Below, one piece after another: positions 7,086-7,329 of a stretch of DNA of 64,000 nucleotides (positions within the stretch are counted from its first letter, which is position 1; every line of letters begins with the position of its first letter). Under the pieces are notes generated by a model, which was given only the letters and a program-made list of their open reading frames with translations, had not been told where the DNA came from and searched no databases. This stretch comes from an uncultured Clostridium sp. Lineage in GTDB: Bacteria > Bacillota > Clostridia > TANB77 > CAG-508. The stretch spans positions 5,660 through 69,659 of the forward strand of contig CAMJYG010000001.1 of the NCBI GenBank assembly GCA_946409935.1. The letters run 5' to 3'. The translations under genes and the position numbers were made by a program.

Positions 7086-7329
7086 GTTACAGTTCAGTTG
7101 CATTTTTACTCCAAAATGTTAATGTATAGTATTTTGAGAACTAATCGAATGCGACTGGAATAACTTAAAAATTCTTAATAATTTAGCAAGGGAATCTCAA
7201 AGCTTGTCTTTGAGGGTGCTTGCTAAATTAATTAGAATTTTTTAGTGTTAAATGAAAGGTAGCCGAGATTATTCGAAAAATACTATACATTAACGTTTAA
7301 GATAATAAATCACGTTACTGAACTGTAAC
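7086..7329 (+). repeat. Family A' long-hairpin element (244 bp)
   Basis: Termini are GTTACAGTTCAG (7086-7097) and CTGAACTGTAAC (7318-7329), with central palindrome CTCAAAGCTTGTCTTTGAG. A core of about 150 bp is nearly identical to the reverse complement of 36648-36914. Confidence 0.85.

Follow-up and report, generated by a model that had tools for sequence, protein, structure and literature searches.

Hairpin elements in the genome of an uncultured rumen or bovine-gut Clostridium are probable members of a MITE family spread across Clostridia

Results and discussion

Location and gene context of the hairpin elements

The window, i.e. the whole stretch of 64,000 nucleotides analysed here, was derived from an uncultured Clostridium sp. 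(assembly GCA_946409935.1, contig CAMJYG010000001.1), and its host is a rumen or bovine-gut Firmicute with a GC content of 27%. Three complete hairpin elements, designated E1, E2 and E3, were located in it. E1 (640..906, minus strand, 267 bp; 138.6 bits with model R1) lies between a PNP_UDP_1 gene and the promoter of tRNA-Met/Tyr. E2 (7086..7329, plus strand, 244 bp; 113.8 bits) is situated in the 5' untranslated region of ileS, 26 nt before the start codon at position 7356. E3 (36647..36914, minus strand, 268 bp; 100.5 bits) was found in the T-tract behind the fbp terminator, with convergent genes on either side. The coordinates that an earlier note had given for these elements were good to one base, as E3 starts at position 36647 with a C and not at 36648 with a G.

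The leader of ileS comprises a promoter-like site (6582-6609), a T-box (6625-6924, plus strand, full model length; 60.3 bits, E 1.4e-11) and the T-box terminator (6906-6941). The score of the T-box is below the Rfam gathering score of 93, and it was hence missed by a default scan. A neighbouring hairpin element (6951-7085, …GCGAATTTTGGCTTATTAATTAATCTTCGATGTAC AAAAA GTACACCTTCAGCTTAATTAATTTCGC…) and E2 are both located between this terminator and the ribosome-binding site, and about 400 nt of inserted repeats separate the terminator from the start of ileS. Due to this position, every antitermination event yields a leader transcript that contains E2, and the presence of E2 in front of this essential gene is tolerated.

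Contigs of strains represented in runs X2 and X4 lack the neighbouring hairpin at 6951-7085 and connect position 6945/6951 to 7344. This hairpin is possibly related to repeats that end with CGTACAA at positions 12699, 40046 and 46750. Directly upstream of the ileS leader, the gene at 4879-6561 encodes a protein with an AAA-ATPase_like (PF09820) and a PDDEXK_9 (PF08011) domain, presumably a member of a family that occurs in multiple copies in gut bacteria.

Further repeats were observed in the window. An intergenic family (26527-26614, 61975-62062, 55522-55609, 63308-63395 and 22549-22591) consists of a terminator-like hairpin, ATACAATAGGAAAG..CTTTCCTATTGTAT, followed by the conserved tail AAAAGAGCTTCGCTCTATGCGTTGCACAG. 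This family is adjoined by another one of 100-136 nt (22396-22531, 25549-25684, 26624-26725 and 62071-62173), which occurs in both orientations with identities of 85-94%. Two copies of a 65-nt hairpin (57030-57094 and 59171-59235, 92% identity, AAAGTCTTGTAGCTATATTAGTTACAAGA(T/C)TTTT) flank two genes at 57316-58877.

Fold, polarity and interior anatomy

Each of the three elements folds into one long hairpin with a free energy of -48 to -54 kcal/mol, compared to about -18 kcal/mol for shuffled sequences (z from -8.6 to -11.1), and none of them (244-268 bp) contains an open reading frame of at least 90 amino acids. All three are bounded by GTTACAGTTCA...TGAACTGTAAC; in E2, the termini are GTTACAGTTCAG (7086-7097) and CTGAACTGTAAC (7318-7329). 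With at most one mismatch, GTTACAGTTCA occurred at eight sites in the window, six of which are ends of E1, E2 and E3; 1.05 sites were expected, and a number of eight was reached in 0 of 100 shuffled sequences. The observation of three related hairpins is real and non-random.

From the outside inwards, the elements consist of the terminus, a variable arm of 25-50 nt, a common segment TTAAT(A/G)TATA..ATATTTT, a motif loop, a stem (AGAAATTCT / AGAATTTCT), a second internal loop, which is purine-rich on the strand read from A to S, and a variable apex. The motif loop is formed by two non-complementary motifs, AATCTCGGCT(R)C on the S arm and GCATTCGATT on the A arm, which give the element its polarity. 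On the plus strand, the S motif is on the left in E1 and E3, and the A motif is on the left in E2. Accordingly, the core from the A to the S motif extends over 7143-7270 on the plus strand in E2 and over 36718-36845 on the minus strand in E3.

The near-identical core of E2 and E3 in opposite orientation, which the earlier note had pointed out, was recovered with a repeat finder as an inverted pair of 159 nt (7122-7280 / 36708-36866) with 92% identity; measured from motif to motif, the identity is 93%. The opposite orientation reflects insertion in opposite directions and nothing more, as the polarity is set by the asymmetric inner motifs. The layout proposed for E1, TCTCGGCT ... AAATTCTA ... 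central hairpin ... GCATTCGATT, is likewise present with a different hairpin at the apex. The outer arms of E2 and E3 had been regarded as unrelated, which did not hold for the termini and the TTAAT(A/G)TATA..ATATTTT segment: both are common to the two elements, and the arms are 71-72% identical in a global alignment. What is indeed peculiar to the arms of E3 in this pair is an additional GC-rich block, AGAAGTCCGCGCAAGTGATTA, which E3 has in common with a further element at 29118-29320.

Termini, target duplications and distribution

The termini were searched for in one genome of each of 185,579 species using the pattern TTACAGTTCA, 220-250 nt, TGAACTGTAA. This search yielded 73 loci, compared to about 17 matches expected by chance, a figure that we estimated from the collection size. 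Most loci belong to MAGs of Clostridia (Lachnospiraceae, Eubacteriales and Clostridiaceae), together with a few cultured species, e.g. C. symbiosum. Thus, elements of about 245 nt between these termini occur in many genomes of Clostridia; the GC content of the genomes concerned ranges from 26 to 64%, and more than 30 copies were present in one MAG. The termini are the sole feature kept across all GC classes.

The outermost bases are G...C in 59 of 76 elements. The 8-mers abutting these G...C ends agree at 7 or more of 8 positions in 27 of the 76 elements (perfectly in 20), and the corresponding numbers at other offsets are 0-4. In the window, this target duplication was seen at E3, where the flanks TGTTTTTT / TTTTTTTT agree at 7 of 8 positions, and at E1, where the flanks AACCCCGA / AACCCCCG(A), also written AACCCC[C]GA, represent an 8-bp duplication plus one extra C. 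The flanks of E2 agree at only 4 of 8 positions.

In the high-copy MAG CAMEON01 (loci L007, L013, L015, L023-L025, L055 and L071), numerous elements have a terminus of another copy, or a position next to one, as their insertion site, with duplications such as ACAGTTCA, CGTTACAG and AACTGTA, and tandem arrays occur, e.g. at 7084-7800 of L025. These insertions suggest a target preference for the ends of the element itself. One of the loci (L053, NZ_MNPW01000057.1) is filed as Pseudomonas cedrina. It is a contig of 642 bp with a GC content of 34% that consists of one perfect palindrome around a GTTACAGTTCA-type element. Its presence in this record probably stems from contamination or faulty assembly.

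No relevant match was obtained when 72,556 plasmids were searched with E2 and two cores using BLAST. Among viral contigs, the end-to-end pattern gave 0 matches and the core pattern one chance match in a coding region. A full-text literature search with the termini and the core motifs returned nothing but unrelated primers, and no Rfam covariance model matched the elements, neither at the gathering score nor at E values up to 5.

Copy number, empty site and remnants in the window

In run X1, the richest DNA run, the contig depth was 8-24 for the flanks, 200-356 for the core of E2 and E3, 318 for the apex of E1, 533-801 for the arms of E3 and 990-1566 for the arms of E1. These depths suggest approximately 15-75 copies per genome equivalent, depending on the segment.

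A 594-nt contig of the rumen run X3 represents the site of E2 without the insertion. It joins position 7081 to 7332, AAAAG being present in place of TTGA, the element and CA, and it belongs to a near-identical strain with one mismatch per flank of about 300 nt. The border is exact within 4 nt, but the empty allele does not represent one clean copy of the target; together with the poor agreement between the flanks of E2, this counts against the MITE model. For E1 and E3, no empty site was seen in the metagenome contigs.

Altogether, the window holds four full and four partial copies of the family. E4 (13682..13841, plus strand) is an older, decayed copy without recognisable termini, which was found over the full model length (R1, 39.7 bits, E 1.6e-7); it still has the inner palindrome GTTTCAAGTTAATATAT...ATATATTAACTTGAAAC, together with degenerate forms of the two core motifs. 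A truncated copy (18476..18566, plus strand) corresponds to the half of an E1-type element on the side of the S motif (96% identity to 640-730) and stops just before the start of the next gene. An internally deleted mini-element of 64 bp (23594..23657, unstranded) has the ends CTTACAATTCA...TGAATTGAAAC and the flanks CTAATTGT / GTAATTGT. Two solo ends belong to the GTTACAATTCA variant: a right end at 15344..15390 (plus strand), composed of a remnant of the inner arm, the outer arm and the terminus TGAATTGTAAC, and a left end, GTTACAAATCACAACCG...CAAGTTAATAT, at 31727..31768 (plus strand). A hairpin MITE of a sister family (29118..29320, unstranded, 203 bp) has the termini GTTACTAGTCAGCC...GGCTGACTAGTAAT and the flanks AATTGATT / AATCGATG. 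Its inner arms carry the block AGAAGTCCGCGCGAGTGATTA, which is also present in the arms of E3 and corresponds to the 'family D' of the earlier note. A solo right half of an element of this type is located at 55429..55492 (plus strand).

The inverted termini, the duplication of fixed length, the presence or absence of an element at the same site in different strains, the copy number and the spread across Clostridia were all observed directly. As the elements combine inverted termini and a fixed duplication with small size, lack of coding capacity, many copies and an empty site, it is very likely that they are MITEs, i.e. one family of non-autonomous DNA transposons of 244-268 bp with the ends GTTACAGTTCA(G/C) and an 8-bp target duplication. 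This family has no counterpart in the searchable literature or in Rfam, while the kind of element is known and ordinary. The combination of GTTACAGTTCA ends, 8-bp duplication and the AATCTCGGCT / GCATTCGATT core is diagnostic for a repeat family of the intergenic DNA in uncultured gut and rumen Clostridia, and this family breaks metagenome assemblies.

Mosaic similarity among the copies

The identity between copies differs from segment to segment. Between E2 and E3, the core is 93% and the arms are 71-72% identical; between E2 and E1, the core is 63% and the arms are 73-80% identical. A block that elsewhere characterises the 29118-type family is included in the arms of E3, mirrored on both sides, and contigs of other strains run from an E2-type core into E3-type arms. 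Arms, core and apex also differ in copy number in run X1. Within the E1 type, the apex varies in step with the S and A motifs, in a tree-like manner. Direct repeats, which would be a sign of nested insertion, were not seen at the borders of the modules.

As the earlier note had proposed, the elements are thus more than simple duplicates, and the mosaic identities and unequal segment depths also speak against a homogeneous family subject to random decay. The earlier description as nested, exchangeable hairpin modules was partly borne out: the copies are mosaic, and segments have been exchanged or replaced. Free modules were not supported, since the copies are homologous along their full length and the borders lack repeats. 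All copies belong to one transposon family defined by its termini and the 8-bp duplication, which the earlier note had not recognised. A single transposon family that includes recombinant subfamilies accounts for the data better than a set of nested modules that are exchanged. Recombination among the many copies would produce a mosaic of arms, core and apex. The end points of recombination or gene conversion might lie in the shared AT-rich arm segments TTAATATATA..ATATTTT, or segments may have been replaced.

Putative transposase of the family

As the elements are non-coding and possess inverted ends of 11-12 bp and an 8-bp duplication, they must be moved in trans by a transposase of the DDE type with specificity for these ends and a cleavage stagger of 8 bp. 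No transposase was found among the tested open reading frames of the window, as expected for a MITE. An autonomous element with GTTACAGTTCA ends was searched for by pairing ends 300-6000 bp apart with a check for duplications, and by inspecting unpaired ends, clusters of open reading frames across loci and open reading frames beside lone ends. In this limited search, none was detected in the window, in 183 fetched loci or in 12 sampled IS6-like relatives.

Among the families with 8-bp duplications, IS6 is the best fit. Members of this family generate 8-bp repeats and have short ends with cTGTt, and two MITEs of 227 and 336 bp are already listed for it in ISfinder (PMC7986276). One branch of the family is large, clostridial and marked by a zinc finger at the N-terminus; its mechanism has not been worked out (PMC6807381, PMC7986276). 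For ISCbo1, the inverted repeat GTTCTGTTAA and repeats of 8-9 bp have been reported (PMC3098183, Table S3), and these ends were confirmed on plasmid p3BKT015925. If one base is inserted, GTTACAGTTCAG and GTTCTGTTAAG of ISCbo1 agree at 9 of 11 positions. The ungapped comparison of GTTACAGTTCA with GGTTCTGTTGC gives 6 of 11 positions, with CAGTT in place of CTGTT and without caaa.

A second likeness was found in the subterminal region. In the IS encoding protein P0042, TTGAATCTCGGCC is located approximately 25 nt inwards of the left end, in the apparent promoter of the transposase, with the same polarity as AATCTCGGC (S motif) of the MITEs. The match to a parent IS is restricted to these 9 nt (AATCTCGGC) at the left end of the P0042 IS, and ISCbo1 and the P0020 type have CCTCGGC. 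The half of the MITE with the S motif would match the left, promoter-bearing end of the IS and the half with the A motif the right end. All 12 sampled IS6-like relatives end in GTT(C/T)TGT(T/A)AA (GTTYTGTWAA) or ACTGTAAAG, not in GTTACAGTTCA.

From these comparisons of ends and subterminal motifs, we infer both the putative identity of the transposase and a possible origin of the core from IS ends. The zinc-finger branch of clostridial IS6 elements (ISCbo1/ISCpe7 type) is the best candidate for the source of the transposase, and this assignment is a tentative one. Transposition of the IS26 type leads to cointegrates and not to simple insertions, so that clean duplications need either a resolution step or another mode of transposition in the clostridial branch. 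Should the zinc-finger branch indeed be the partner, the MITEs are natural substrates for transposition studies of this unstudied branch.

At the left ends of long clostridial IS6 elements (L187 48425-49722, L195 603-1859 and L212 507-1885), a strong promoter-like site was observed (TTGAxx, 17-18 nt, TATAAT/TACAAT), whose spacer contains a GC-rich CTCGG/CCCGT; the right ends carry a diverged copy. Two other families were compared with the termini. The published consensus of the IS4-ISPepr1 ends (YT-AA-YTT) fitted more poorly than IS6, and so did the ends of IS66 (GTAA).

Conservation of the core and alternative interpretations

In other MAGs of Clostridia, the core was likewise present between GTTACAGTTCA ends, in elements with arms that bear no relation to those in the window. 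A scan of metagenomes for the two motifs gave 110 matches, of which about 20 were true relatives; about 60 were discarded as a chance match to a human-gut gene with a GC content of 57%. An alignment of 31 sequences with 41 consensus pairs was used for the analysis of covariation. Paired cells amounted to 92.6% in comparison to 73.9% in shuffled alignments, and changes on both sides were found in 34 of the 41 pairs (21.8 expected). The covariation score of 0.462 was reached in none of 500 shuffled alignments (0.157), and slid controls gave at most 0.175. Covariation, which the earlier note had named as decisive for its reading, is thus far above both kinds of controls. The covariance model built from the 31 sequences recovered E1-E3 with 100-139 bits, the decayed copy at 13682-13841 and copies in other genomes that had not been used for training. 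Like the hairpin fold, the covariation is a direct observation.

Since paired positions co-vary while the unpaired motifs and the purine-rich loops are fixed, selection may act on the element itself, and the core would be needed in cis for its propagation. We infer this reason for the conservation of the core from the pattern of substitutions.

In many metagenome copies, the core is well kept and the inner arms are perfectly mirrored in the absence of recognisable termini; the search pattern had selected intact cores. Terminus-less copies with an intact core are unexpected for MITEs that decay neutrally and count against the MITE model.

They would fit a core that functions as a single-stranded nucleic acid, i.e. 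as RNA or folded DNA read from A to S, for example as a hairpin bound by a protein or by RNA polymerase, for which the MITE shell is the vehicle. The conservation of the core across species with covarying stems and the purine-rich loops on the A-to-S strand are consistent with such a function. In all of 20 copies, the A-to-S strand folds better than its complement, and its G-U pairs number 87 versus 25; at majority Watson-Crick pairs, 22 G-T cells in 15 columns were counted versus 8 A-C cells in 7 columns. At one locus, a compensating substitution in the stem AGAAATTCT distinguishes two strains (L155 851-997 and L174 3048-3194): the partner of AAATCCT is AGAATTT in one of them and AGGATTT in the other. 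This substitution also agrees with a functional single strand. Furthermore, E1-type sequence was found in metatranscriptome contigs. However, the depth of these contigs is low for a family of tens of copies (5-22) and could be due to read-through or DNA carry-over. The orientation of the elements relative to neighbouring genes shows no bias (5 versus 5), and no Rfam family matched the core. Common ancestry of the copies makes the G-U counts non-independent, and the intact cores had been picked by the search pattern. A DNA hairpin that is needed for transposition predicts covariation and tolerance of G-T pairs equally well. An RNA or single-strand function of the core is therefore a minority reading and rather unlikely. 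A more specific version appears slightly less probable still: the strand-asymmetric core would be a folded RNA or DNA strand that is bound by RNA polymerase or the transposase and kept for this purpose across Clostridia, and the family would transpose via a single-stranded stage or would have been recruited by the host after decay of the termini. With its unusually conserved, covarying core, the family lends itself to asking which of the two nucleic acids, DNA or RNA, accounts for the maintenance of base pairs in transposon hairpins.

It is highly improbable that the hairpin is a single-strand origin of the ssoA type, at which RNA polymerase primes the complementary strand on single-stranded DNA. 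The core motif GAGCCGAGA(A/T)TTT resembles RSB (TTATGCCGAGAAAATTT), and the apex of three subfamilies contains TAGCGA or TAGCGC on the same strand, similar to CS-6 (TAGCGT) (PMC4598088). The opposite arm carries ATTGGAG, comparable to ATTGGAA at the base of ssoA in pT181 and pE194, and there is a likeness in overall shape, both being imperfect hairpins with a length of 150-200 nt and a function in a single strand. Homology to ssoA was nevertheless rejected, as the likeness is confined to short motifs: both base motifs are on swapped arms, TAGCG is missing from most types of apex, and searches of pT181 and pE194 with an nhmmer profile and a covariance model of the MITE family gave no match. Moreover, no copies of the elements were found on plasmids or viral contigs, and no single-stranded stage is obvious for a transposon with inverted ends and a target duplication.

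The least probable interpretation, REPIN-like hairpins or elements mobilised by an HUH enzyme or a recombinase acting on folded DNA, with the terminal repeat being incidental, could account for long hairpins with conserved asymmetric bulges and for copies without GTTACAGTTCA ends, but HUH (RAYT / IS200-IS605) transposition and tyrosine or serine recombination do not produce a target duplication of fixed length, whereas the 8-bp duplication abuts the termini here, the termini are the one feature conserved in all GC classes, and no RAYT-like gene was present among the tested open reading frames of the window.

Comparison with known systems

The MITE family, as the preferred interpretation, resembles several known systems in part. 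With ssoA of pT181 and pE194, it has the long imperfect hairpin, GCCGAGA with ATTGGA opposite and, in some subfamilies, TAGCG(A/T) near the apex in common. Unlike ssoA, the motifs are on exchanged arms, and the MITEs reside on the chromosome between transposon ends and were not found on plasmids.

BOX elements of Streptococcus pneumoniae have a modular boxA-B-C structure and a stable secondary structure and occur between the genes of a Firmicute. The MITEs are alike in their modular appearance, structure and intergenic dispersal. In contrast, BOX elements consist of tandem blocks without inverted termini or an 8-bp duplication, and the 'modules' of the MITEs are concentric parts of one hairpin.

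The Correia elements of Neisseria and the ERIC/IRU elements of enterobacteria are small, high-copy, intergenic imperfect palindromes that are often co-transcribed and occur in variants with internal replacements or insertions. The MITE family is alike in these traits; it differs in its termini and host phylum and has no sequence similarity to them, and Correia elements duplicate TA instead of 8 bp.

The MITEs of the IS6 family and the long clostridial IS6 elements (ISCbo1 and ISCpe7; clade h/VII) differ from the MITEs described here in their ends, which are GG..cTGTt..caaa or GTTCTGTTAA and not GTTACAGTTCA, and in the interior, which in the MITEs is a long covarying palindrome and not two plain IS ends. 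They are similar in the 8-bp duplication and in the short terminal repeats with C-x-GTT, in their occurrence in Clostridia, often just upstream of genes, and in a AATCTCGGC-like subterminal motif that is present in at least one relative.
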